Shown here: piece after piece, positions 1,923 to 25,587 of the stretch
Position numbering within the stretch: position 1 is the stretch's first letter
Layout: each line of letters opens with the position of its first letter
From: a plasmid
Strand: one strand, 5' to 3'
DNA: 32,715 nucleotides
Assembly: GCF_053078305.1 (NCBI RefSeq)
Contig: NZ_CP166878.1
Notes under the pieces: generated by a model
The model's database searches: none
What the model was told of the DNA's origin: nothing
The model's input: the letters and a program-made list of their open reading frames with translations, nothing else
Program-made: the position numbers and the translations under genes

Positions 1923-2987
1923 ATGGATAAAAAGACAAAAACATATCCTTTTGGTGACATTGAGTTTTTTGACCAGTTAGAGGAACATGCATGGGACCAG
2001 ATTCATGATGGTATGCTACCAATTATGGATTTGTATCTTGATCCGACAGTAACCGATATATTTATAAACAGGTATGACAATATATATACATCTGTCAATG
2101 GCAAGTATGTAAAGACCGACAGTTCCTTTTCCAGTGAACGGGCACTTAAAGCCTGGATTGATCAAATCGCAACGGTGTTGAGGCAGCCATTTTCAACGTC
2201 AGGAAACTATAAATATGGTGATGTCATTGAGCCTGTACTTGATGCCCGATTTCCCGATGGTTCCCGGTTGATGTGTACAGACCCGGTGATTTCACCGCAG
2301 GGTTCTACGGTAAGTCTTCGTAAAGTACCTAAGCAAATACTGGAAGAAAAAGATTTTATAAATTCCGGTATGTTGACGAGAGATATTCTTGATTATCTCA
2401 TTAGTGTTATACAAAAACGGAAAAATTTTATTGTTGCTGGTAATACTGGTTCTGGCAAAACATCACTTTTACGCTTGCTCGCCAGGTATATTGATACGAT
2501 GGAGCGTGTTATCACCGCCGAAGACACTCAAGAACTTCATATACACAGGTATTTTCCGTTAGGGATTGCTCTGGAAGCTGCACATCGTAAAGATGTGAAT
2601 GCGGATCTTCCTTCTCTGGTTCACCTGACTATGCGTGGTAATCCCGATCGTGTATGGGTTGGGGAGGTAAGAACGGCAGAGGCTATAGCTGCTTATTACA
2701 TGGTTCTGGCAAGTGGAACTATAGGTAATGCTACAACTCTGCACTCCGTTACCCCTATGGGGGCAATACGCAAAATGACCTGGCTTATGTCAAGCTATCT
2801 CAGTATCGATTTTCAGATAGCTCAGGATTTAATTATGTCAGAGGTTGACGTGATTATTCAGTGCCGGAGAACATCAAAGCATGGAAGAAGAATTACAGAT
2901 ATCGTCGAAATACGTGAAGGGAAAATTGTTCCTATATTCAAGTTTGATGAAGAGCAAGAAGTACATGTCAGGTTTGACAAAAAATGA
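1923..2987 (+). CDS. virB11: VirB11-family secretion ATPase
   Basis: 354-aa ORF; Walker A GNTGSGKTS, downstream ITAEDTQEL and conserved His-box region typical of VirB11/TrbB traffic ATPases; ATG at 1923. Confidence 0.9.
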   Translation: MDKKTKTYPFGDIEFFDQLEEHAWDQIHDGMLPIMDLYLDPTVTDIFINRYDNIYTSVNGKYVKTDSSFSSERALKAWIDQIATVLRQPFSTSGNYKYGDVIEPVLDARFPDGSRLMCTDPVISPQGSTVSLRKVPKQILEEKDFINSGMLTRDILDYLISVIQKRKNFIVAGNTGSGKTSLLRLLARYIDTMERVITAEDTQELHIHRYFPLGIALEAAHRKDVNADLPSLVHLTMRGNPDRVWVGEVRTAEAIAAYYMVLASGTIGNATTLHSVTPMGAIRKMTWLMSSYLSIDFQIAQDLIMSEVDVIIQCRRTSKHGRRITDIVEIREGKIVPIFKFDEEQEVHVRFDKK

Positions 2988-3000
2988 ACATTTAGCATTA

Positions 3001-3080
3001 TATGCTTATATGCTTATATGCTTATATGCTTATATGCTTATATGCTTATATGCTTATATGCTTATATGCTTATATGCTTA
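3001..3080. repeat. Perfect tandem octamer microsatellite (TATGCTTA x10)
   Basis: Ten uninterrupted head-to-tail copies of TATGCTTA directly readable in sequence, starting 14 bp after the virB11 stop. Confidence 0.95.
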
Positions 3081-3105
3081 TATCATTGTGTTTGTGTGAA
3101 ATATT

Positions 3106-3299
3106 GCTGTAACATCGACGGTCTACGACCACCTACCACCTGAATAGCTGTAGGTTCCGTGCGGTCAGGCTTGGCAGGGGGCTGACGCGGTTCCTGGCGA
3201 CATGAAACTCCCTGGTTAGGGGTATCGGCGCGACCTGGCATCTGTGACTCTATAAAGCCATTTTTCGCGCCTTCCATGCCGCTAAAGCGGCATATTCCA
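3106..3299 (+). repeat. 194-bp repeat family, copy 1 (upstream of ccdA)
   Basis: Near-identical to 18900-19093 and ~90% identical to 3962-4155; begins GCTGTAACATCGACGGTCTACG and ends with hairpin ATGCCGC-TAAA-GCGGCAT then ATTCCA. Confidence 0.9.
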
Positions 3300-3366
3300 C
3301 ACTTCTAGATCCGGGGTTTTGGGTATATGCTATGTTTATATGCATAATTTATGTGGGGGGCTTGTT

Positions 3367-3612
3367 ATGAGAACAAATGTGGCAGTAAAAAAACGTAGTA
3401 TAAACGTATACTTAAATGCAGGGTTACTTGAAGAAGCAAAAGATCTTGATCTGAATGTTTCTGCTATCTCTAACAAAGCTCTCGAAAAAGCGGTAAGGGA
3501 GCGTAAGCGTGAACGCTGGATAGAAGAAAACCGTGCTGGCATTGAGGCATTAAACCGTTTTGTAGAAGATACCGGGATTTTTTCAGATGATGAAAATTTT
3601 GGGGTAATTTAG
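3367..3612 (+). CDS. ccdA: CcdA-family antitoxin
   Basis: Recognisable similarity to F-plasmid CcdA (VNISxxxxxxxxEARRxRAERWxxEN...FADENRDW pattern: NVSAISNKALEKAVRERKRERWIEENRAGIEALNRFVEDTGIFSDDENFG); ATG 3367 preceded by G-rich RBS; stop overlaps ccdB start. Confidence 0.85.
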   Translation: MRTNVAVKKRSINVYLNAGLLEEAKDLDLNVSAISNKALEKAVRERKRERWIEENRAGIEALNRFVEDTGIFSDDENFGVI

Positions 3613-3929
3613 TGAAACAATTTTCTGTCTACAAGAACAAATCGCGAAATAAACAGGCGTACCCCTATTTTATTGATATACAGGCAGAGATGCTTGCACA
3701 CCTTAACACCCGGTTGGTGATGCCTTTAACGCCAAAAGATAATTCAAACTCGCAGGTAAAGACGTTAACGCCAGTAATAAACATCAACCAGGTAGATTAT
3801 GTGGTTCTGACTACTATGATAACGACAACGGATGCAAAAAATCTGAACTCTGATAATGTCGTTATGGATGCTTCATATTTACGAGATCAACTGGTTTCTG
3901 CAATTGACATGATGATTCTGGGTATTTAA
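3612..3929 (+). CDS. ccdB: CcdB-family gyrase-poison toxin
   Basis: GTG start overlapping the ccdA stop by 1 nt; protein begins MKQFSVYKNKSRNKQAYPYFIDIQ and ends MMILGI, matching the CcdB family pattern ([21 protein letters not shown] ... LMFWGI). Confidence 0.85.
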   Translation: MKQFSVYKNKSRNKQAYPYFIDIQAEMLAHLNTRLVMPLTPKDNSNSQVKTLTPVININQVDYVVLTTMITTTDAKNLNSDNVVMDASYLRDQLVSAIDMMILGI

Positions 3930-3961
3930 TTTTTGCAGGGTAGTAAATAGTAAAAAATATC

Positions 3962-4155
3962 GCTGTAACATCGACGGTCTACGACCACCTACCAGCCGAG
4001 TGGCTGTCTGTTCCGTGCAAATGGGCTTTGCAGGGGGCTGGCGCGGTTCCTGGCGACCTGAAAGCCCCTGGTTAGGGGTATCGGCGCGACCTGGCATCTG
4101 TGACTCTATGAAACCATTTTTCGCGCCTTCCATGCCGCTAAAGCGGCATATTCCA
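3962..4155 (+). repeat. 194-bp repeat family, copy 2 (downstream of ccdB)
   Basis: Same length and ends as copy 1; about 20 substitutions clustered in hairpin-forming segments, several compensatory. Confidence 0.9.
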
Positions 4156-4233
4156 AACTTTGGAGCAGTTCTGCAATGTTGTTTGAATTGTTTCGTAGTC
4201 GTATCATTATTTTTTATGTGATGATTGTTTTTT

Positions 4234-4560
4234 TTATGTGTCTGACATTTTTCCAATCATGATTTCTGTGAGATTTGTATCAGCAAAATCTCCTTTCCCC
4301 GATTCAGTGTCAAAGTCGCCTGGCGTGAACTTATGTACGTCTTGCCAGACTGCGAAGCAGGTAGGGCATGTTACAGGTAGTTCGCCCTCCGCTATCTTTT
4401 CACAACTTTCTACCAGTTCTTGTTTCTCGTTGTACCTGATGTTATAGCCGCTTGTGCAAAGCGTTTCATACCCGTGAGCGCCCGTCACTATATGTGTGGC
4501 GGTTCTTTCTGTGATTTTTCCATCAACTAATAACTGTTCATGCGTTGTGATCGTTTGCAT
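4234..4560 (-). CDS. Hypothetical Cys-rich protein (108 aa)
   Basis: ORF with CxxC-type cysteines (CTSGY...CEKIAEGELPVTCPTC); no family recognised; lies between repeat copy 2 and the virB3-like gene. Confidence 0.45.
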   Translation of the reverse strand: MQTITTHEQLLVDGKITERTATHIVTGAHGYETLCTSGYNIRYNEKQELVESCEKIAEGELPVTCPTCFAVWQDVHKFTPGDFDTESGKGDFADTNLTEIMIGKMSDT

Positions 4561-4704
4561 GTCTGTCTCTCATAATTGTTGGTTTATGTGATTGTTGGGG
4601 CGACCGTAAAAATATACGCCAGATGATGGGAGAGCATCTTATTTCGTATTGCTCAAAAAAACATATGACAAATATCACAAAAATGAAGTGCAGGTATTGA
4701 CATC

Positions 4705-4717
4705 GGGGGGGGGGGGG
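4705..4717. repeat. Homopolymeric G13 tract in divergent intergenic region
   Basis: 13 consecutive G read directly, 71 bp upstream of the virB3-like start. Confidence 0.9.
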
Positions 4718-4787
4718 TAACGTAAAGATTATAAATATAAATTTTACAAAACGTAAAAATATACTACGTCATTCGGTAAGAAATCAA

Positions 4788-5120
4788 ATGGCTGAAATAA
4801 AAGGAAAAATAACCAATCCCGCACTGGTTAATGCAAAAGTTTTTTACAACAGACGAACAAAGCTGGGGATACCTACAGAGGTCTTTTTGATCCTGATGTT
4901 CCTGAATGTTTTTGCTGTTGTGCTGTGTGTTATGTATTTCAGCACATTTTCCGTTATTTCGCTGATTTTATTTGTTCTGGTATCGGTTGTTCCTATGAAG
5001 TTCGTTTTTCATGGCGATCCCGATGCTCATAAAGCTTGGATTTATGGTTATTTGTCACCTTCCAGGCTGAACAATACCCACGCAGTGAAGCGTCGTATCA
5101 CATTTATAGACGCTATTTAG
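4788..5120 (+). CDS. virB3: VirB3-like small inner-membrane T4SS protein
   Basis: 110 aa, hydrophilic N-terminus then one long hydrophobic region (GIPTEVFLILMFLNVFAVVLCVMYF...); position immediately upstream of pilin and VirB4 genes. Confidence 0.55.
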   Translation: MAEIKGKITNPALVNAKVFYNRRTKLGIPTEVFLILMFLNVFAVVLCVMYFSTFSVISLILFVLVSVVPMKFVFHGDPDAHKAWIYGYLSPSRLNNTHAVKRRITFIDAI

Positions 5121-5508: not shown

Positions 5509-8109
5509 ATGGGGCAGAGCTATAACGAACATCTGAATCTGGCAGGCATCGAACAACATTCCGGGCAGGTGTATACCTATACTGGAGGTGCTTTTGGTGC
5601 TATTGAACTGACAGGTGTTGATCCAACGGGTGTTACCCCTTCTCAGGGTAGCCGTATTTCTTTATTACTTCGTAATATCGTTCAGTTACTGCCCCTTTCT
5701 GTCACACTGACTCAGTATTATATCCATAATGACGGCGTTAAGATCCGGCTGACAGGGCGTGATAATCAACGCAGTCAGTTACTTTCTATGCGTCGCCAGG
5801 CATATCTTAATAAATGTCGTAATTTAAATGCCTCAAGAATTATATGGACGCTGGATGTTCACCCGGAAGAGAATATTAATCGCCTGGCATCTGCCGAGTT
5901 TTTAAAGAATCTTTTTAACAGCATGTTTGATGACACAGCCAGACGTAAAGTCAGGCTGGCACTGTCAAATCGCGAATCGTTTATCATTGAGCGTCAGGCA
6001 TTTGAAAAACAGTGCCTGTTGCTGAAAGAAACATTACGCGATCTGGACTTACGCCTTTCTTTTATTTCAGAAGATAACAGGATTCTTGATTCAGAAGGGA
6101 TCTGGCGATTACAGAAGTTCCTTGCAACATTTAATCACCATTGGCTGGCTCCACGCCGTAAGGTCACTGTACCCAATGATATGTGGGATTGTCTGGCGAT
6201 TGAAGGTGACGATATCGAGGCCATTACCTGGCGTGGCGTTGATATGTTGAAGATCCAGGGGGTACGGCCTGTTTATGTTCGCCTGGCCAGTGTGTTGAAA
6301 ATAGGCGATGAATCTGTACCGGAATGTGCCTGGGCGCTGACAAATGGCAGACCAGTTTTACAGCGGGGTAACTACGTTTACTTCATGCGGTTCACTCCCG
6401 CCAGTGCCTTTAAGAAGTCACTGATGATCAGCGGGAAAGAAAACGAACTTGTCAGGACTCAAATCAGTTTGAGCGATTTAATGACTGACAGTACGAGCAA
6501 AGATATTCTCGATGAAAAATTGCGCAGAAATTCACATCTGATGAAGATGCGCGAAGAACTGGAGAATATTTCATATTCAGATGAGCGCCTGGGGATCTGC
6601 CAGGCCGGGATTGCTGTATTTAATACAGATCCCGATAAATTACTTGAGACTTGTGCGGATATTAACCGTAGTGTCTCTCAGACCATGCAAGTTGTATGGG
6701 AGACGGTAGCACAACTGGATGCTTACAAGGTTATGCAACCAGCCTACTCACGCAATACATTTCGTGCATTACAGCTTAACGCATCTCAGATGGGGGCGGC
6801 ATCCTTGTTCTTTAAATCCCATCCAGGTATTCCTGAATGGGAGCTAAATGGACGCATGGAGGAAGCCTTCTATATTCTTGAATCAGATGATGGCGTGCCG
6901 TTTTTCTTTACGCCAAAAGTTAAAGAAAAGCTACTGCTTCTTGGTAATGGGGCGACCCGTGGCGGCAAGACTTTTATGAAAAACTGTATTGCCAGCCATT
7001 TTATTAAATTCGGTGGTCTGTATAACTGTCTGGATATCGATCCTGGCTCTATCCCAATGGCTAATTTCTTTGGGGATGATGGGGCAGCATTTACCCTTGA
7101 TAGCGATTTTCAGTGTGGTTTTAACATGTTCAGTATGGCGCAAAGCAAGGATGACAGGGTATTTCTTGCGCATCTTATAGAGCAGTTAAAAGCAATGGCA
7201 GCAGAAAATGACAGTGAGCAGGATAAATATTTAACGCCTGATGAACTTGAAAATATAACAGTGTGTGCGAGTGATCTTCTTGTACAAAAATTTTCGCCGA
7301 ATGAGGGGCGTTTAAGCTCAATCACGTTGTCAACGCTGGTTTCTAAGTGTGGTCAGAGCGTTAAACGCAAGTTAGCGCCATTTATTAGTAATGGTATTTA
7401 TGGACGTTTATTTGATAACAAAGAGGACGCGATTGGTGTTCTTGATAAGCCGGTAGCTGTTTACAACCTTTCAGGTGTGAAAGATAACCATAATCTTGCG
7501 CGGCTTGTGCACCGTGAAATCTTCTTTCGTGTCGTTCGTTTGTTTGAATCACCGGAATATCGCACGATACCAAAGTTTTTTGAAATAGATGAGGCACAGT
7601 ACACCCTGTCTGTACCACATGCCGCAGAGTTCGCTACACAGAAAGCCCGAACCTGGTTTAAGCATGGTGGGGGTATGGGATTCTGGACTCAGAACCCGGA
7701 GCACTATTCATCACTGGATGAGTGGACTACGTTACGTTCCTCGGCGTCGGTGTTTATCTTTATGCCGGATAATGAGGCAACAGTTAAAGCATTCCATGAT
7801 GCTTATGGCTTCGATGAAGAAGAAGTGAATATTATTCGCAGCCTTAAGGTAAAACAGCAGTCGTATATAAAGATCCCGGACATGCAGATTGCAAAAGTGG
7901 TGAATCTGTTTGTTGAGGCTGAACAGTATGCTGTTTGTACATCAACGTCTAATGAAGCAGCCCTGGCAGCGGAAATATGGAAACGTGAATCAGATCCCGA
8001 TGTTGCAGTGCGACAGATTGTAGAAGGTCTGATAACGAAGTGTAATAAGGACTTGATCCCAACGCCTACAGAGACTGAAAAGGATAAAACGGAGGGGTTT
8101 TTCTTATGA
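5509..8109 (+). CDS. virB4: VirB4-family T4SS ATPase
   Basis: 866-aa ORF, Walker A GNGATRGGKT, size and position typical of VirB4/TrbE; RBS GAGGTGA. Confidence 0.9.
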   Translation: MGQSYNEHLNLAGIEQHSGQVYTYTGGAFGAIELTGVDPTGVTPSQGSRISLLLRNIVQLLPLSVTLTQYYIHNDGVKIRLTGRDNQRSQLLSMRRQAYLNKCRNLNASRIIWTLDVHPEENINRLASAEFLKNLFNSMFDDTARRKVRLALSNRESFIIERQAFEKQCLLLKETLRDLDLRLSFISEDNRILDSEGIWRLQKFLATFNHHWLAPRRKVTVPNDMWDCLAIEGDDIEAITWRGVDMLKIQGVRPVYVRLASVLKIGDESVPECAWALTNGRPVLQRGNYVYFMRFTPASAFKKSLMISGKENELVRTQISLSDLMTDSTSKDILDEKLRRNSHLMKMREELENISYSDERLGICQAGIAVFNTDPDKLLETCADINRSVSQTMQVVWETVAQLDAYKVMQPAYSRNTFRALQLNASQMGAASLFFKSHPGIPEWELNGRMEEAFYILESDDGVPFFFTPKVKEKLLLLGNGATRGGKTFMKNCIASHFIKFGGLYNCLDIDPGSIPMANFFGDDGAAFTLDSDFQCGFNMFSMAQSKDDRVFLAHLIEQLKAMAAENDSEQDKYLTPDELENITVCASDLLVQKFSPNEGRLSSITLSTLVSKCGQSVKRKLAPFISNGIYGRLFDNKEDAIGVLDKPVAVYNLSGVKDNHNLARLVHREIFFRVVRLFESPEYRTIPKFFEIDEAQYTLSVPHAAEFATQKARTWFKHGGGMGFWTQNPEHYSSLDEWTTLRSSASVFIFMPDNEATVKAFHDAYGFDEEEVNIIRSLKVKQQSYIKIPDMQIAKVVNLFVEAEQYAVCTSTSNEAALAAEIWKRESDPDVAVRQIVEGLITKCNKDLIPTPTETEKDKTEGFFL

Positions 8110-8924
8110 GAAAACAACTTGCAGTAGTCTTGTTTTCTGTAATGACAGGATTGATTACAACACCTGCTATTTCTGGCGTTCCTGTTGCGGATGCTGCTCA
8201 GATTCTTGGTCAGGCCAGGGCTATGATGCAGGATATCAAAAACTATAAAGAATATATGGAACAGACAATTCTCAATAATAAAGAATTGCTGGAAGCATAT
8301 AAGCAATACAACCAGATGCTTGAGGATTATAAGCAAATTTTACGTGAGGCCGAAGGGCTGAAAGATAAACTTTCATCGATTGACTATAAGAATTTTATGG
8401 ATGAAATAGCCCTTATCTCTAACCAGTTCGATCCCGTTTATGGCGGGGGGCGTATGGTTAAAAATACGGGTAATGCGCCGTGGGATAAAGCCTATGAGCG
8501 TAATTTGTTGCTTAATGGCTATGGGCTTACAAACGAAGAATATGCCGAAATGCTGGCAGCGATACCATATACGAGTGATGACCGCGAACGTGCCCGGCAG
8601 ATGTTTGAATATAGGCAGCGCAGGGTTGTTGAAGGGATTTCAAAAGATGCCTTTGTTGGTGAATTGCAAATACAATTAAAAAAGCAAGGAAAAACTCTAG
8701 GGGAATTACAGGAAAGACGTTTAAGGTTAGGTGATAACGATACGACAGCCTCTATCCAGTTTTTAGCTGAACAAAATGAACAACTGTTACAACAAATTCA
8801 GAGTTTACAGTTACAGCAAGCAGAGGCGATGAAATATAGTGGTCGTCTTGAGGATCACTATTTTAACAAGCGAGCGCAACAGGAAGAATTAAAGGCACGT
8901 CAGTTACAGAGGGCATGGCAATGA
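8106..8924 (+). CDS. VirB5-like secreted helical protein (minor pilus subunit candidate)
   Basis: Start overlaps virB4 stop (ATGA); signal peptide; helical/coiled-coil-rich 272 aa; positional inference. Confidence 0.5.
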   Translation: MRKQLAVVLFSVMTGLITTPAISGVPVADAAQILGQARAMMQDIKNYKEYMEQTILNNKELLEAYKQYNQMLEDYKQILREAEGLKDKLSSIDYKNFMDEIALISNQFDPVYGGGRMVKNTGNAPWDKAYERNLLLNGYGLTNEEYAEMLAAIPYTSDDRERARQMFEYRQRRVVEGISKDAFVGELQIQLKKQGKTLGELQERRLRLGDNDTTASIQFLAEQNEQLLQQIQSLQLQQAEAMKYSGRLEDHYFNKRAQQEELKARQLQRAWQ

Positions 8925-11996: not shown

Positions 11997-13403
11997 ATGG
12001 AAGAACGTCAGGAGAAAGTAGAAGAAAAACCAGCTACTTACCGTAAAAAAATACAGTATTACGCTTTTGGTACTTTTGGTGTGATCCTGGTAATTCTTTT
12101 TATCAATATGGTGATAAGTATTGCCTCAAGGAACGAGGAAGAACCAAAGGAAAATGCGAAACAGGAAACTGCCAGCACTGCGCCAAATACAACGGAAAAG
12201 TTTAATGCGTTACTGAAAAACAGTGGTGCACGTCCTTCTGCCTCCGTTAATCAGGCTAATACGGTTGGAAATAAGGATAGTGCCAGTAATGGAAATCCGA
12301 ATAGTGAAACAGATAAAAAACCTGTTCACCCTTACAGCCGGGAAAAAGAGGCGTCTCAGGAGAGGGGGGCGAGAGCAAGTGATGCGGGGTCACCTGATGA
12401 AATCAGGGCACGCTTTAAGGCTGATGAGATTAACCGAGCACTGCGTGCCAGGTCAGATAAAACAAATTTTGACAGCACTAAAAATACGGTTGCGGGTAGT
12501 GGTAATGCATATGCCCCGGCAGCATCGTTTACCGGAAACCGGACTAATGCGCAGCGTATCAGCGATATAAACGCAGAGCAGAATGGATTGCAGGAACGTA
12601 TCCAAATGATGGAATCAAAAGTTCGTGCTGATGAAGCCGCTTTGCCTGGACGACTGGAAGAAGCCCGGATACGTGGGGAACAGCAATTTGCAGAAGCCCG
12701 ACAGGGTGGAGCAGGAAGTAACGCGACATCGGTAACTAAGGGGAGTACCCAGAGCGTACCGTCCGGTGTTGTGGGATATACAGCCAGTAATCCTTATGGG
12801 GCAAGTGTTGATGGAATGATGAAGTTGCCAGTAGGTACGGTCCTGAATGCCATTACCACATTTACGGCTATTTCTGATTATTCCGGCGGCTCAATGAAGG
12901 CCATGCTTACGCATGATATCTATGATGCGACGCATAGCTACATTCTTGCGCCTAAAGGAAGTGAGTTCGTTATCAGGGTCGTTAAAGCCTCCCAGGTAAA
13001 CGAAATCCTTCAAAGCCGTATTGGATTCCAGGTTACATGGCTTGTATTGCCTGATGGTAACAGGGTCGATTTTAAAACCTCGTCGTCTCTTGACCGAATG
13101 GGGACTCCGGCGGTTGAAGGCGATGAGGTGGACAGGCATTTGCTCGCTCAGTTTCTTGGCGTAGCGGCCTATGCCCTTGTGGGGACGAAAACCAGCTACG
13201 AAGGCTCAGGTGATAGTAACGAGAGTTTTGCCGGGAATTTTGGCGAAGGCGCTCGTACTCAGGCAGGAAATATCGCTCAAAAATACCTCCAGGTTGTGCC
13301 TACAACAACGTTACATGCGGGAGCACCGATCAGGGTCTTTACCGAAGATGAGATATACATGAAGCCGTGGAGAAATATTTATGAAACGGATTATACGGGC
13401 TGA
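11997..13403 (+). CDS. virB10: VirB10-like protein
   Basis: 468 aa, N-terminal TM, Pro/Glu/Ala-rich linker, C-terminal beta-barrel-like domain. Confidence 0.75.
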   Translation: MEERQEKVEEKPATYRKKIQYYAFGTFGVILVILFINMVISIASRNEEEPKENAKQETASTAPNTTEKFNALLKNSGARPSASVNQANTVGNKDSASNGNPNSETDKKPVHPYSREKEASQERGARASDAGSPDEIRARFKADEINRALRARSDKTNFDSTKNTVAGSGNAYAPAASFTGNRTNAQRISDINAEQNGLQERIQMMESKVRADEAALPGRLEEARIRGEQQFAEARQGGAGSNATSVTKGSTQSVPSGVVGYTASNPYGASVDGMMKLPVGTVLNAITTFTAISDYSGGSMKAMLTHDIYDATHSYILAPKGSEFVIRVVKASQVNEILQSRIGFQVTWLVLPDGNRVDFKTSSSLDRMGTPAVEGDEVDRHLLAQFLGVAAYALVGTKTSYEGSGDSNESFAGNFGEGARTQAGNIAQKYLQVVPTTTLHAGAPIRVFTEDEIYMKPWRNIYETDYTG

Positions 13404-13875
13404 AATATTGTTTTTTGCTGCATTCTTTGCATTTTCCTGTCAGGCAGCAAGAAGTCCTTTCCAGGTAGACAGGATGCGAGAAAGTGCGCCTGTTCAGATA
13501 TCACAGCAGGATGTGCATGTGCAGGGAAACTTTCAGGAGTTACAACCACTGGACAGGAACCAGAAAGATCCTCGCTGGCAGTATATCGATCCGTTGAGTG
13601 TTTACATGCGTACAGTTTGGCCCGATAACATCAGGACTATCAGAGCAGCGGTGAACTATCTCCTTGAACCAACAGGATATCGCCTGGTAACGAGTCATCC
13701 GGCACCGCGTGAGGCTTCCCTTCTTGTTGATAAGCCATTACCGCCAATTGCCAGAATGCAACGCACAATGCCCGTAGTTGATGCTCTTCAGTTGCTGGTT
13801 GGGCTTGATAATTATGTTGTTATTGATCGTGCCCACAGGCTGGTTTCATTTCAGAAAAATGGGGGCGGTGTATGA
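13381..13875 (+). CDS. Hypothetical exported protein within T4SS cluster
   Basis: Signal peptide MKRIIRAEILFFAAFFAFSCQA; 164 aa; overlaps virB10 end by 23 nt; no family recognised. Confidence 0.45.
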   Translation: MKRIIRAEILFFAAFFAFSCQAARSPFQVDRMRESAPVQISQQDVHVQGNFQELQPLDRNQKDPRWQYIDPLSVYMRTVWPDNIRTIRAAVNYLLEPTGYRLVTSHPAPREASLLVDKPLPPIARMQRTMPVVDALQLLVGLDNYVVIDRAHRLVSFQKNGGGV

Positions 13876-14096
13876 AGGAATGGTGTATGCGGATTATTTT
13901 TGTTGCTTTCCTGGCTATTGCAACGGTGATTCTTTGCTTATTTATGACGGGGTGTGCACAACGTTATGAGAGTGGTCATGATCAGCTTTTCGAACTGTCA
14001 GAACGCCATATCATTTACCGGGATCTGACTGTTCCGGCATCGATGAGCAATTTGCCGGAGAAGCAGCAGATAAGCGTACCGGGGATTGAGCCGTGA
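13872..14096 (+). CDS. Small lipoprotein (VirB7-like candidate)
   Basis: Lipobox LFMTGC after hydrophobic leader; 74 aa; start could instead be ATG 13887. Confidence 0.45.
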   Translation: MKEWCMRIIFVAFLAIATVILCLFMTGCAQRYESGHDQLFELSERHIIYRDLTVPASMSNLPEKQQISVPGIEP

Positions 14097-15147: not shown

Positions 15148-15591
15148 GTGGCAAGAAAAGGTGTAAATGAAGTCACCCTAGTTGGTTTTGTTGGTAATGC
15201 TCCGGTGATATCTCAGGCCAGTAGCGGGGATAAGATCGCGGTTATTTCCGTTGCAACAACTGAAACATGGACGGACAGAAAGACAGGTGCTGAAAAAGAG
15301 AAAACCGAGTGGCATCGAGTTGTTATTTTCGGAAAAACAGCTGAGATAACGGAACAATATGTAAAAAAAGGCACATTGCTGTACATTCGCGGGAAACTGC
15401 AAACCCGTAAGTGGCTGGACCGAGACAATATAGAGCGTTACAGCACGGAAATTATTGTTAATCCGGCAGGGGGAGAAATGCAGATGCTGGGGAGTCGCCA
15501 GGATAAAGTAACCGGAGGAAAAGCCGGAAACGACATTCCTGAAAATGGCGCTGGCAGTACGGACAAGCAGCAAAGCAATGAAACCGACTAA
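15148..15591 (+). CDS. ssb: Single-stranded DNA-binding protein (plasmid SSB)
   Basis: OB-fold region matches the SSB family (MARKGVNEVTLVGFVG..., TEWHRVVIFGK, LQTRKW); C-terminus ends QQSNETD with no DDDIPF-type tip. Confidence 0.9.
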   Translation: MARKGVNEVTLVGFVGNAPVISQASSGDKIAVISVATTETWTDRKTGAEKEKTEWHRVVIFGKTAEITEQYVKKGTLLYIRGKLQTRKWLDRDNIERYSTEIIVNPAGGEMQMLGSRQDKVTGGKAGNDIPENGAGSTDKQQSNETD

Positions 15592-15611
15592 CGCGCCTTC
15601 GGCTTGTTCAA

Positions 15612-15665
15612 CCCCGGAGTCACTCAGAAGCAAGTTCCGAGTGACCCCGGCGTTTTTGGTTTTTA
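15612..15665 (+). terminator. Rho-independent terminator after ssb
   Basis: 12-bp stem CCGGAGTCACTC / GAGTGACCCCGG followed by CGTTTTTGGTTTTT. Confidence 0.75.
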
Positions 15666-15818
15666 CTACGGGGATGATAATACCCATGAGGTTGATACTT
15701 GGCAGAGTCAGCTTGTGGGCATTATCAGGGGACTATAAAAGCCCATTTAAATTGTATTTAAATCATCCGGTAACGGCAAGAAAAATAATGTGTCATTCAG
15801 GCATAAGTGCAGGGCCAT

Positions 15819-16787
15819 ATGATTAGTCCGGCAATTGATTATTTTGCGGCAAACTTGCCATACCGACCTTATCACGCGAATGAATTGCTCTATGGGCTTC
15901 GTATCGATAAGGCAGCTAAAGCAGTGCTGGCGCGTTATATACAGCATAATCCACCTCATGCAATGTACTGGCTTGTTTTTGACGTTGACAGGCCAGTTGC
16001 GGCGATTGACTGGAATGATCTTAATGCGCCCACACCTAATTTTACGGTCAAAAATCCGGTTAATGGTCATGCACACCTGTTTTATGGGTTAAAAACGGCA
16101 GTTCGTGTTGCCAAAGACGGTAGCATTAAGGCGATCGAGTTTGCTGCTGCGGTAGAGCGAGGATTACGTGACAAACTTAAATCAGATATCGGCTATGCAG
16201 GGCTGATCTGTAAAAATCCTCTCCATACATGCTGGCAGGTTGTTGAATGGCGTGGAGAACTTTATGAGTTAGCTGAACTGGCTGATTATGTTGATTTGTA
16301 CGCGTCAACAGCGGCTAACGATGAACAGGCATTCGATATCGACTTTAGTTATGGGCTTGGGCGAAATTGTTGGCTCTTCAATCTGACCCGTATCTGGTCA
16401 TATACAGCAATCCGGCAGGGCTGGCCTGATTTCCCGCAATGGAAAGAAGCGGTGATTCAGCGTGTCGAAATGTATAACGTGCAGTTAAGCGTGCCTTTGT
16501 CTCACAAAGAATGTGTATGCATTGGCTCCAGCATCGCCAAATGGACGCATAGACGCTTCACTGAAGCTGGATTTGAGCAATATGTAGCTGATACCCATAC
16601 ATCAGAAATTCAGGCTCGTAGAGGGCGTAAGAATCGCTCAGAAGTGCAGGCTGCTAAGGGGCGTAAAGGTGGGAAAATATCTAAAAGAGGGATTGTTGAG
16701 GATTCTGCGCGGAGTTTGAAACCGTGGGTAGAGTTAGGGATCAGTCGGGCAACCTATTATCGACGTAGGGCAAATGAGACCAAATAA
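15819..16787 (+). CDS. ColE2-type plasmid replication initiator (primase-type Rep, Replicase family)
   Basis: N-terminal region YRPYHANELLYGLRIDKAAKAVLARYIQHNPPHAMYWLVFDVDR is characteristic of ColE2-like Rep proteins as I recall them; basic HTH-like C-terminus; origin-like sequence overlaps the stop. Confidence 0.65.
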   Translation: MISPAIDYFAANLPYRPYHANELLYGLRIDKAAKAVLARYIQHNPPHAMYWLVFDVDRPVAAIDWNDLNAPTPNFTVKNPVNGHAHLFYGLKTAVRVAKDGSIKAIEFAAAVERGLRDKLKSDIGYAGLICKNPLHTCWQVVEWRGELYELAELADYVDLYASTAANDEQAFDIDFSYGLGRNCWLFNLTRIWSYTAIRQGWPDFPQWKEAVIQRVEMYNVQLSVPLSHKECVCIGSSIAKWTHRRFTEAGFEQYVADTHTSEIQARRGRKNRSEVQAAKGRKGGKISKRGIVEDSARSLKPWVELGISRATYYRRRANETK

Positions 16788-17649: not shown

Positions 17650-17710
17650 CAACCCCCTGATATCTCTCTTAGAGCTTTTGCGGGGCCAAAGAAGATAATC
17701 AGGGGGTCCA
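17650..17710 (+). promoter_or_regulatory. Long stem-loop in repA leader (candidate antisense-RNA target)
   Basis: Arms CCCCCTGATATCTCTCTT / AAGAAGATAATCAGGGGG around an 18-nt loop containing GCCAA (one base off the conserved IncFII/IncB loop hexamer); location upstream of leader peptide and repA. Confidence 0.45.
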
Positions 17711-17743
17711 AAGCAGGCTTTTGCCTGTAAAGGATTATAGCAA

Positions 17744-17800
17744 ATGCATTTTTCAATACAAGACTACTGCCCGGCAATAAGTGCGGGCGGTGGTGGCTGA
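17744..17800 (+). CDS. Leader peptide overlapping repA start (translational coupling candidate)
   Basis: 18-codon ORF MHFSIQDYCPAISAGGGG whose stop lies 17 nt inside repA, the arrangement seen for tap/repY-type leader peptides. Confidence 0.45.
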   Translation: MHFSIQDYCPAISAGGGG

Positions 17801-18506
17801 AAAGAACAATTCCTTAATCCCCCGCATATCGCCGTCAGGGGTGGCCAAACAAAGTCCATGCTATAACGTTGTGTCGCGTAAGCGACGCCGTTTCCTCAAT
17901 CGCTGGATTAAATCGCTGGCGACGGTCGCTGGGCGTGTCAAAATCAAAAACGAACTCCGCCGCCGTATCCGGCATAACCGATATTGGGTTAATGAGGCTA
18001 ACAAGTTTGGCATAGAGGCACTTTGCGAACTGATGTTAGCTATCCTGGATGATCTCGATTTACGCTCCTGGGAAACCAGGCATAACCTCGAAACACTGGC
18101 AGAACGTGCCGGACTGGTGACACGCAGTGACGCGGGGCGTAAATCTATTTCCCGTGCCAGTAGGGGATGTGATCGCCTGGTCTGGTTGAATGCGATCATT
18201 ACAGATAAAGCGCCGTTTAACCCCTATGATGCACGGTGTGCCTGTAAACACATTGAAGTAACCGAAGACTTCTTTGCCATACTCGGCATTCCGTTAAAAC
18301 TGGTTTATCGGGAACGTGCCAGGCTGTTAAAGGCAGATCCTAATGAAATGATTTACTCCGGGGATGCCAGACTGATAGCTATCAGAGTCCAGAACTGGAC
18401 ACGGAAAGCGGCAGCCGGATTAGCCCGGATGAAAGCGAAACGCGACGCAGCTCGACAACGCAAAAAAGAATATTACGCTCACCCACCTACCCCTATTCCG
18501 GTCTGA
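17781..18506 (+). CDS. repA: IncFII-family replication initiator RepA
   Basis: Segment LETLAERAGLVTRSDAGRKSISRASRGCDRLVWLNAIIT aligns with the RepA1 core of R100-type proteins (SITTLAIECGLATESAAGKLSITRATRALTFLSELGLIT); GTG start right after an in-frame stop. Confidence 0.75.
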   Translation: MRAVVAEKNNSLIPRISPSGVAKQSPCYNVVSRKRRRFLNRWIKSLATVAGRVKIKNELRRRIRHNRYWVNEANKFGIEALCELMLAILDDLDLRSWETRHNLETLAERAGLVTRSDAGRKSISRASRGCDRLVWLNAIITDKAPFNPYDARCACKHIEVTEDFFAILGIPLKLVYRERARLLKADPNEMIYSGDARLIAIRVQNWTRKAAAGLARMKAKRDAARQRKKEYYAHPPTPIPV

Positions 18507-18562
18507 TACAGGCTAACTTACCGCCTTATGGGGCGGTGTATCGCCACGTCCATAATAAAAAG

Positions 18563-18609
18563 CTGTACAAAAAATAGTCTTGGCGTGGGTTATTTTCCGT
18601 TTTCCATGC
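18563..18609 (-). repeat. Tn21-subfamily-like inverted repeat, right arm
   Basis: Reverse complement reads GCATGGAAAACGGAAAATAACCCACGCCAAGACTATTTTTT, matching the left arm over ~36 bp with 2 mismatches; outer GGGG is absent. Confidence 0.6.
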
Positions 18610-18659
18610 TCAGAAAAGAGCAGTTATAAGCTGTATCATTGGGTAAACAATGCACAGGT

Positions 18660-18668
18660 TGTGGATAA
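18660..18668 (-). promoter_or_regulatory. Consensus DnaA box (TTATCCACA)
   Basis: Forward TGTGGATAA is the exact complement of the 9-mer consensus; lies about 150 bp downstream of repA. Confidence 0.5.
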
Positions 18669-18705
18669 TCATACTTAAAGTGCAAACGATATGCCGCAAT
18701 TACTC

Positions 18706-18750
18706 TTTTGCTTCTCTTTTAGTTACTTACGTACTAAAAGAGAAGCAAAA
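18706..18750. repeat. 18-bp perfect inverted repeat with 9-nt spacer (origin-region hairpin candidate)
   Basis: TTTTGCTTCTCTTTTAGT - TACTTACGT - ACTAAAAGAGAAGCAAAA; no T-run on either strand, so not a terminator. Confidence 0.8.
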
Positions 18751-18899
18751 AAGAAAAACATTACTGTTATCCCCTTTAACAAGTGAATAACCTAAAAACA
18801 TCGGCGCAAGCGCCTCAAAAGTAGCACCCCTCGCAAGCTCGGGGCATTAGAAACAACAGCATCCCATCATCACAATCGAACTATTATTCATCTATCTTC

Positions 18900-19093
18900 G
18901 CTGTAACATCGACGGTCTACGACCACCTACCACCTGAATAGCTGTAGGTTCCGTGCGGTCAGGCTTAGCAGGAGGCTGACGCGGTTCCTGGCGACATGAA
19001 ACTCCCTAGTTAGGGGTATCGGCGCGACCTGGCATCTGTGACTCTATAAAGCCATTTTTCGCGCCTTCCATGCCGCTAAAGCGGCATATTCCA
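18900..19093 (+). repeat. 194-bp repeat family, copy 3
   Basis: Differs from copy 1 by only a few substitutions; same orientation; sits between the repA origin region and the next gene. Confidence 0.9.
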
Positions 19094-22404: not shown

Positions 22405-22536
22405 TATACAATCACTTGATTCGATAATTATAAAATTAAGTGATTTTATGATTGCATGATTCTATGAGCATGGGATTATTAGAATGTTTGGCAGAGGTAC
22501 TATGTGAACAAAGGGGAGGGGAAAATGCCTAAAGTT
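22405..22536 (+). repeat. Orphan duplicate of par promoter-operator plus first 4 parA codons
   Basis: About 94% identical over 132 bp to 24844-24975, including RBS and ATGCCTAAAGTT, then diverges; the operator inverted repeat is degenerate in this copy. Confidence 0.85.
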
Positions 22537-22614
22537 GGAGCAGCGGGAGCGTTCGAACAGAGACTTACGGTTTCGTTCTTTGTGCAGCAGTTGAAACCGT
22601 AATTATTTGTTTTA

Positions 22615-24843: not shown

Positions 24844-24963
24844 TATACAATCACTTGATTCGATAATCATAAAATCAAGTGATTTTATGATTGCATAATT
24901 TTATGAGTATGAGATTATTAGAATGTTTGGCAGAGGTACTATGTGAACAAAGGGGAGGGGCAA
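24844..24963 (+). promoter_or_regulatory. par promoter-operator (candidate centromere/operator)
   Basis: Perfect 12-bp inverted repeat AATCACTTGATT ... AATCAAGTGATT plus reiterated TGATT motifs directly upstream of parA. Confidence 0.6.
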
Positions 24964-25587
24964 ATGCCTAAAGTTATAGCATTTTTAAATGGTAAGGGGG
25001 GGGTGTCTAAGACAACCTCGGCAGTCAATATTGCTACTGCTCTTGCTCGTAAGGGATACAAAGTTGTCGTTGTGGATACCGATCCTCAGGGAAGTGTTAG
25101 TAACTGGTATGATGACAGTAAGTGTGTTTTTGATGTAGCAGAAGCTACGACAGAAAAAGAAATTTACCGTTTGCGGAAGGCGCTTCCTTTGCACGATTTT
25201 ATCATTATTGATGGTGCTGCGGCGATTTCGGCGATATCGGCAGCTGCTGTTATGGTTTCTGATCTTGTCATTATCCCAGTTACTCCTTCGCCGCTTGATT
25301 TTGCTGCATGTGGCGCGATATTGGCAGTGATAGAAGCTCGGCAGGATTTACGCCCGGTGATTGCTCGCTTTTTGATTACTAAAAAAGTACAGCAAACGCA
25401 TATGCTATCTTTGCTGAAAGAATCTATTGCAGAAACAAGCATACCAGCATTAAAAACAGGAACGTCGTACAGGCAGTCATATATAAAGTCTATGCTAGAT
25501 GGTGGTACTATATTTGATACAAAAGATAGTGCTGCTAAAGGTGAAATATCAGTCATTACAGAAGAAATACTTGGACTATTAAAATGA
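24964..25587 (+). CDS. parA: ParA-family partition ATPase (ParF-like)
   Basis: Deviant Walker [19 protein letters not shown]; ATG 24964 with GGGGAGGGG RBS (ORF track begins at upstream GTG 24943). Confidence 0.9.

Follow-up and report, generated by a model that had tools for sequence, protein, structure and literature searches.

What a non-coding sequence of 194 nt, present three times on one plasmid, might do there is the question raised by a repeat family in a 32,715-nt stretch of plasmid DNA (RefSeq assembly GCF_053078305.1, contig NZ_CP166878.1; hereafter, the window). A repeat search of the window places three direct copies at 3106-3299 (copy 1), 3962-4155 (copy 2, 91% identity), and 18900-19093 (copy 3, 98%). 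When the flanks are included in the alignment, the repeat borders are sharp and the sequences around the three copies are unrelated, so the family announced in a preliminary description of this DNA is real. Copies 1 and 3, described there as nearly identical, differ at only 3 positions. For copy 2, presented as the divergent copy with about 20 substitutions, 18 differences from copy 1 are found, 16 of them inside element positions 34-104. A coding role was considered and rejected; the indels among family members are not multiples of three, in keeping with a non-coding sequence, and the minus-strand open reading frames had already been described as not conserved. Each copy is, instead, quite probably a G4-type signal at which primase initiates synthesis on single-stranded DNA, i.e., a plasmid “G site”. 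Such folded priming signals of single-stranded DNA have been known since about 1990 from plasmids R1/R100 and ColIb-P9 and from phages G4 and alpha3. The element forms a new sequence subfamily within a class represented by R1/R100, ColIb-P9, F, and the G4-like phages.

The window is near-identical to E. coli plasmids of about 30 kb, e.g., pEc631_3. The plasmid is of a conjugative type, with a VirB-type secretion system, ssb, ccdAB, and parFG-like genes; an oriT or a relaxase was not found in the window, where a 234-aa and other candidate ORFs have no NCBIfam or Pfam match. Two replicons are present, one with a ‘Replicase’-family Rep (15807-16787) and one with an IncFII/IncI-type repA (17781-18506). 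Copy 3 stands beside the latter, a plus-strand replicon (17651-18852) composed of a repBA pseudoknot (17651-17778, Rfam RF01089), repA, a DnaA box TGTGGATAA 3′ of repA (18661-18669), and, after this box, an A+T-rich origin region extending to about 18852. The copy starts 394 bp past the stop codon of repA, about 50 bp after the origin homology ends (~18850). Copies 1 and 2 bracket the plus-strand genes ccdA (3367-3612) and ccdB (3612-3929), identified from the annotation of pEc631_3, with copy 1 ending 68 bp upstream of ccdA.

The element is best described on the minus strand, the putative template (active) strand for all three copies. It comprises, in this order, hairpin C (ATGCC...GGCAT), a G(G/T)AA linker, hairpin B, a GA(A/T/C)N linker, hairpin A, a spacer, and a start block. 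In copy 1, the predicted fold gives hairpin C (ATGCCGC-loop-GCGGCAT) at 3276-3293. Hairpin B lies at 3227-3271, with an outer stem GGCGCGA/TCGCGCC around 31 nt and an inner stem TGGC/GCCA, and hairpin A (CCCT-loop-AGGG), seen both in the predicted fold and in an anchor-based parse, at 3210-3222. The start block CCCCTGCCAAGCC follows at 3168-3180, and is the same block as that of the annotated G4 primer start. The corresponding features are located at 4132-4149 (C), 4083-4127 (B), 4065-4078 (A), and 4024-4036 (start block, by block search) in copy 2, and at 19070-19087, 19021-19065, 19004-19016, and 18962-18974 in copy 3. Across the family, the outer stem of hairpin B begins with GGCG or GGCC and encloses 30-34 nt in every member, while hairpin A has 4-5 bp and is separated from the start block by about 35-55 nt of spacer. 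Although the interiors are unrelated between lineages, hairpin C lies at an almost constant distance from the block (93-113 nt). The block itself, CC(C/T)CCTGCnAAGCC, is found on the minus strand of every member, including the three window copies, and its CCTG is invariant in 27-30 aligned sequences.

Folding the three copies, as had been proposed, gives hairpins C and B in all of them. Hairpin A is predicted in copies 1 and 3, and the R100 members also show all three hairpins, but in the minimum-energy fold of copy 2 hairpin A is replaced; it is also degenerate in F and absent from the GC-rich variants described below. The overall folding energy is modestly below that of shuffled sequences (z between -1.3 and -3.3). 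On the 3′ side of the start site on the template, stem comparison reveals a distal hairpin (3131-3155 in copy 1), with the stem ACCTAC/GTAGGT in copies 1 and 3 and CAGCC/GGCTG in copy 2. The window copies and the pKL1-like plasmids have this conserved 60-nt distal part in common, whereas it is missing or different in the members from R100, F, and ColIb-P9.

Relatives of the element are abundant. Comparison with plasmid sequences by blastn retrieves it in 650 plasmid records, most of the matches (80-84% identity) being Col(MG828)-type, pKL1-like E. coli plasmids of 1.3-1.6 kb, of which there are about 600. In these, the element lies about 170-220 bp downstream of a small HTH RepA gene, in the same orientation, and in 24-kb MOBC plasmids it lies 397 bp downstream of an IncFII-like repA. 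This position 3′ of a rep gene, with constant orientation, is thus shared by the window, pNORD1_2, and the pKL1-like plasmids. More distant members occur in a 5.2-kb Shigella plasmid, a Symbiopectobacterium plasmid, and metagenome contigs. In R100, local alignment shows that CGCCTTCCATGCCGCTGATGCGGCATAT, about 820 bp downstream of repA, agrees with the element's 3′ end in 26 of 28 nt, and the surrounding sequence contains the same hairpin series; a second R100 copy, in the leading region beside oriT, was detected by nhmmer.

A covariance model (R1) of the minus-strand core, seeded from plasmid copies only, scores the window copies at 110-122 bits (112.7 bits for copy 1, at 3166-3294; 122.5 for copy 2; 110.3 for copy 3). 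It also matches R100 (L029) at 45387-45520 with 91 bits, 350-400 bp beyond the DnaA-box region of oriR (44848-45035), and at 4806-4939 in the leading region with 79 bits. In ColIb-P9 (L153), which is absent from the seed, the match at 2198-2331 reaches 93.5 bits and lies 710 bp downstream of repZ, in antisense. The F leading region is matched with 58 bits, next to oriT (L150, 15395-15529, corresponding to NC_002483 65395-65529). The leading-region members of F and R100 are located between a DUF932 gene and an SLT gene, on the transferred strand, and would be the first structured element to enter the recipient.

The argument for a selected structure had initially rested on copies 1 and 2, whose differences were said to be paired changes restoring pairing. 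The stems of copy 2 are indeed perfect, TGCAAA/TTTGCA being paired at 6 of 6 positions in copy 2 versus 3 of 6 in copy 1, and CAGCC/GGCTG at 5 of 5 versus 4 of 5. Nevertheless, copies 1 and 3 form other local stems, namely ACCTAC/GTAGGT (6 of 6) and GTCAG/CTGAC, the latter enclosing the CTG block. Copy 2 carries the pKL1-like consensus base at 17 of the 18 positions differing from copy 1, while, in the 3′ third, copies 1 and 2 have about 30 differences from this consensus in common. Copy 2 is, therefore, a recombinant mosaic, pKL1-like at positions 1-104 and of the window type in its 3′ part, and the supposedly compensatory changes are mostly alleles imported by recombination. Moreover, the hairpins with the strongest covariation (A, B, and C) do not vary among the window copies. 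The conclusion of a structured element, here a single-stranded DNA initiation (ssi) element, holds owing to covariation across the wider family, and the argument from copies 1 and 2 is weak.

In this wider family, lineages differ in stem sequence and retain pairing, as seen in the anchor-based parse. The outer stem of hairpin B occurs as GGCGCG/CGCGCC, GGCGA/TCGCC, GGCGG/CCGCC, and GGCCA/TGGCC, the stem of hairpin A as CCCCT/AGGGG, CCCGC/GCGGG, CCGCC/GGCGG, and CCGGC/GCCGG, and the stem of hairpin C as ATGCCGC, ATGCCC, and ATGCCCC. The parse was used for stem comparison in place of MAFFT alignments, in which hairpins C and A are misaligned between lineages, so that RNAalifold saw only 7 pairs. 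In a model-made alignment of 58 matches, 86% of the cells are paired and 5 of the 15 pairs have double changes. The covariation score exceeds that of each of 500 shuffles, and in slid controls pairing drops to 35-48%. As hairpin A is still misregistered in this alignment, covariation is understated. The covariation test with more homologues, suggested at the outset, thus comes out in favor of a selected structure.

The strand can also be assigned. With G.T pairs allowed, 17 of 20 distinct family sequences can form the complete CAGCC/GGCTG stem on the minus strand, against 2 of 20 on the plus strand, and the A.C mismatches found at 18 pair positions on the plus strand (summed over the 20 sequences) correspond to G.T on the minus strand. 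This favors folding of the element as the minus strand. The strand modelled is, in R100, F, and ColIb-P9, antisense to repA and the template for the leading-region genes, i.e., it is the transferred strand. Relative to repA, the window element is oriented as it is in R100 and ColIb-P9, and the modelled strand may be the transferred one in this plasmid too.

The start block provides the link to phage origins, whose complementary-strand synthesis, in G4, alpha3, St-1, and phiK, needs only DnaG and SSB. The G4 record annotates the primer at 3970-3997 and the origin at 3998, with the local sequence GGACGGCGAAAGCCGCCGTCCCTACTGCAAAGCC, which sets the start of the G4 primer at the T of CTG in CTACTGCAAAGCC. 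The equivalent block reads CCCCCTGCAAAGCC in copy 2 and the pKL1-like plasmids, CCTCCTGCTAAGCC in copy 3, and CCCTCCTGCTAAGCC in alpha3. The best alpha3 match of the plasmid-only model falls between genes G and H (viral strand, 4986-5078), with 14 bits (E=0.019 in 261 kb, and 8.7e-4 in the 11.6 kb of the two phages with filters off), and its best G4 match, with 6.9 bits, is the annotated primer site. Outside the shared blocks, the likeness to the phage origins is, thus, weak. The phage link came only via the conserved blocks and the covariance model: blastn against phages returned no microvirus, only mislabelled plasmid-like records of 1.4-1.9 kb. The signature GGA[AC]GGC[GC]...C[CT]NCTG[CA]NA[AG][GA]C[CT] has a single occurrence in G4, in alpha3, and in each of the leading regions of F and R100, and three occurrences in the window.

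The alpha3 match includes GGAAGGCGTTAGCCGCCTTCCCTCCTGCTAAGCC, which can be read as GGAAGGCG-TTA-GCCGCCTTCC, i.e., hairpin I with its GCGTTAGC mini-hairpin. A hairpin I with this GCGTTAGC mini-hairpin is described for St-1 and alpha3 (PMC13037366). The plasmid linker and the 5′ arm of hairpin B (GGAAGGCG) are identical to the 5′ arm of the phage hairpin I, so that the plasmid element resembles a phage origin with an enlarged hairpin I and about 50 nt inserted before the start. Plasmid and phage elements share the start block CT(A/C)CTGC(A/T)AAGCC, with the CTG of the primer start, and the GGA(A/C)GGCG arm of hairpin I. In phages, however, hairpin I is a compact 8-bp stem abutting the start, whereas in plasmids hairpin B encloses 30-34 nt and is followed by about 35-55 nt, including hairpin A, before the start. 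With hairpin A and the spacer inserted, the geometry met by primase in plasmids is unlike that in phages. In the pKL1-type copies and in copy 2, the predicted fold allows the TG of CTG to pair within the TGCAAA/TTTGCA stem.

Among plasmids, the closest functional precedents are two signals near replication origins. Masai and Arai are said to have shown in 1989 that the G site of R1/R100 is a primase-dependent start of the leading strand downstream of oriR; by its position, we take the R100 match at 45387-45520 to be this site. The window element is homologous to it, with the same order of hairpin C, GGAAGG, hairpin B, hairpin A, spacer, and CCCTGCnAGnCC, the same strand relative to repA, and the same location downstream of the origin. 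It differs in that the hairpin interiors are unrelated and the stems are GGCGCG instead of GGCGG and CCCCT instead of CCGGC; it is also nearer to the origin, has the extra conserved 60 nt 3′ of the start, and is present in three copies. Tanaka et al. reportedly found in 1991 an ssi signal near the replication origin of ColIb-P9, which, again from its position, is presumably the match at 2198-2331. This is a full-length member on the antisense (transferred) strand, followed, like copy 1, by a toxin-antitoxin pair, although it is of the R100 sequence type. The ssiA and ssiB signals of RSF1010 are likewise hairpin priming signals of single-stranded plasmid DNA, but they are 40-nt hairpins used by a plasmid-encoded primase, RepB′, and their sequence is unrelated (PMC13037366).

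In the mechanism proposed here for the window, hairpins C, B, and A would remain folded when the minus strand is single-stranded and coated by SSB, and would mark the site. DnaG primase would begin the RNA primer at the T of CTG in CC(C/T)CCTGCnAAGCC, at predicted positions 3176, 4032, and 18970 (plus-strand CAG at 3175-3177, 4031-4033, and 18969-18971, respectively). The template would be copied toward its 5′ end, i.e., rightwards in window coordinates, and the primer then extended by DNA polymerase III. Copy 3, just beyond the IncFII/IncI-like origin, would template synthesis away from repA and, thus, provide a leading-strand start; in R1, the leading strand reportedly starts at a primase site beyond oriR. 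Copies 1 and 2, on the same strand, could prime complementary-strand synthesis wherever this strand is exposed, most plausibly as the transferred strand after conjugation. If this is the transferred strand, as it is in F, R100, and ColIb-P9, an Okazaki-like piece primed at each site would cover the DNA that had entered immediately ahead of it, including the gene at its right. Complementary-strand synthesis in F recipients is discontinuous and survives rifampicin, which implies that priming not carried out by RNA polymerase must exist (bioRxiv 10.64898/2026.01.09.698686). The proposed priming fits such discontinuous, rifampicin-resistant conversion of incoming F DNA. Same-polarity arrays of the element upstream of or between genes in two metagenome contigs (L074 and L083, see below) also fit priming on a transferred strand.

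The repeats bear, in addition, on the ccdAB genes. Plasmids CP088743 and CP088440 match the region minus exactly one repeat period (856 bp). The single element of CP088743 is flanked upstream as copy 1 is and downstream as copy 2 is, with ccdAB absent, and carries copy-1 bases at positions 34-104 and copy-2 bases at 149 and 152. Such a state is expected either as the product of homologous recombination between the copies or as a precursor into which a ccdAB circle later recombined. In the preferred reading, the copies also serve as substrates for homologous recombination, by which the ccdAB cassette was added or removed, and the repeats account for the presence/absence polymorphism of ccdAB.

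Several other readings of the element have to be weighed against a G4-type priming signal. A promoter of the Frpo/ssp kind, where RNA polymerase reads the folded transferred strand and expresses the downstream gene early, with the transcript as a possible primer, would account for the location of the copies: every window copy is followed by plus-strand genes of suitable polarity (ccdAB for copy 1), and genes also follow the ColIb-P9 and R100 copies. In the metagenome contigs, the L074 copies are found ~120-240 bp upstream of same-polarity genes, near an orphan methylase, and those of L083 between genes of the same polarity, including a DndB-like gene. Polarity shared with downstream genes is, however, expected for any transferred-strand element, and the gene after the leading-region copies of R100 and F lies on the opposite strand. 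The single-stranded DNA promoters of classes 1-3 are large stem-loops that reconstitute -35 and -10 boxes (PMC12672017). They resemble the element in being folded, repeated, located on the transferred single strand in intergenic regions upstream of genes, and able to provide primers, but they are long single hairpins (about 150-330 nt) in which -35/-10 boxes are rebuilt and read by RNA polymerase, with no similarity of sequence or architecture. The element consists of short separate hairpins, with no long one, and no -35/-10 pair occurs within any copy in 2950-4800, while the F repeat at the Frpo position folds as one hairpin of about 310 nt (z=-6.5). At E<=10, model R1 finds no match at the Frpo repeats of F (8015-8621 and 13403-14011, which stand upstream of ssb and of the next gene cluster), nor in the intergenic regions of the ColIb-P9 leading region. 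A promoter of this kind is, thus, improbable, and of the “Frpo/ssi type” initiation element first proposed, the ssi part is retained and the Frpo part abandoned. Even less probable is a PriA-dependent primosome assembly site of the phiX174 type forming all or part of the element. Its candidate would be the conserved 60 nt 3′ of CTG, which the window copies share with pKL1-like plasmids and in which a hairpin is kept by G.T-compatible changes. Such sites have no sequence consensus by which to recognize or reject them; yet R100, F, and ColIb-P9 lack this distal part or have a different sequence there, and nothing ties it positively to PriA.

A structured minus-sense RNA, be it a small RNA, an antisense RNA, or a cis-regulatory RNA, would leave identical traces in the alignment, i.e., minus-strand covariation and G.U-compatible changes. 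The Rfam search recommended earlier gives the element no family, even at permissive E-values. The sole gathering-score match of Rfam 15 in the window, PK-repBA (RF01089), is outside the element, and a permissive scan adds only the TTATATGC simple repeat (a spurious microRNA) and a weak CrcZ match that overlaps the end of copy 2 (15.9 bits, where the gathering score is 95). Promoter-like or terminator-like sites are lacking in and beside the copies, the conserved blocks are those of the phage DNA origins where primase starts, and the element adjoins replication and transfer origins. The small RNA once suggested has, therefore, been dropped, and we give an RNA of any of these types a very slim chance. 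The slimmest chance is that of a recombination or transfer site, either a cer-like dimer resolution site or an oriT. It would fit a ccdAB indel bounded by copies 1 and 2 and the fact that many 1.5-kb plasmids carrying the element are typed ‘mobilizable’. Nevertheless, the crossover in the single-copy relative may lie anywhere in element positions 105-148, as for homologous and not site-specific recombination, and plasmids with two or three copies are typed non-mobilizable. As 1.5-kb carriers of the element are found in both mobility classes, mobility typing does not track the element.

With a G4-type priming signal as the preferred reading, the elements are of practical interest for annotation, as they are unannotated in all the records examined and, in some, overlain by spurious CDS calls. 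They make up more than one tenth of very common 1.5-kb E. coli plasmids and, in F, R100, and ColIb-P9, adjoin an origin of replication or of transfer. The definition of the family by its start block, three hairpins, and fixed spacing would permit their annotation and, for conjugation, would offer concrete candidate sites for the rifampicin-resistant priming that converts incoming DNA to double strand. A broader, more doubtful proposal is that G-site modules are widespread, overlooked portable priming elements of the transferred strand, a primase-based counterpart of Frpo/ssp, whose repeats act as homology cassettes. If so, modules upstream of toxin-antitoxin, methylase, and other early genes would set which incoming stretches become double-stranded first, and these stretches could be the first to be expressed from ordinary promoters. 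Their repetition would, likewise, offer homology cassettes for the capture or loss of small modules, e.g., ccdAB.

The element shortly precedes a toxin-antitoxin pair in three plasmids, namely yacAB in ColIb-P9 (2198-2942 for element and pair), pemIK in R100, with one gene between (45387-46946), and ccdAB in the window (3106-3929). The Symbiopectobacterium plasmid NZ_PEHF01000101 (L016) carries two full-length copies in opposite orientations, at 13142-13268 (+) and 8613-8746 (-), as well as weaker partial matches to the model. In GC-rich, plasmid-like metagenome contigs, a shorter variant is present in 3 copies (Ga0207696_1000571, L074) or at least 7 copies (SKEA01000360.1, L080-L083), almost all sharing one orientation. 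Every L074 copy lies 120-240 bp upstream of a gene and the L083 copies lie between minus-strand genes, the neighboring genes including those of a cytosine methylase, a DndB/DGQHR protein, and umuC. The pattern CGCCTTNCATGCCN{3,12}GGCAT used on metagenomes matched mostly GC-rich coding DNA by chance, and true members were separated by nhmmer and the start block.

A scan of genome contigs added little diversity, as it returned mostly the same 1.5-kb plasmid as small stand-alone contigs of unrelated assemblies (e.g., from Streptomyces, Micromonospora, Clostridium, Flagellimonas, and Mycobacterium), which looks like reagent or laboratory contamination. The ‘Escherichia phage’ records OR844749, OR844798, and OX638291 (1.4-1.9 kb) are actually this plasmid type. 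In NZ_CP134357, the annotation has a 219-aa ‘rep protein’ CDS running over the element in the opposite direction (L002, 499-1158), which is probably spurious.

The window has further features of its own. Its second replicon adjoins ssb (15148-16787) and encodes a 326-aa Rep matching Pfam ‘Replicase’ (PF03090, E=5.7e-43), with a faint PriCT_1 match, which suggests a ColE2-like, primase-type initiator alongside the IncFII-like repA. Between the stop of a VirB11-like ATPase gene (1923-2987) and copy 1, about 11 tandem copies of the 8-mer TTATATGC occupy 2998-3085; this array is also found in CP088743, with one variant unit. Finally, a second family of direct repeats, 138 nt long and 93% identical, is present at 22405-22542 and 24844-24981, 2.4 kb apart, its second copy being just upstream of a ParA-like gene (24943-25587).
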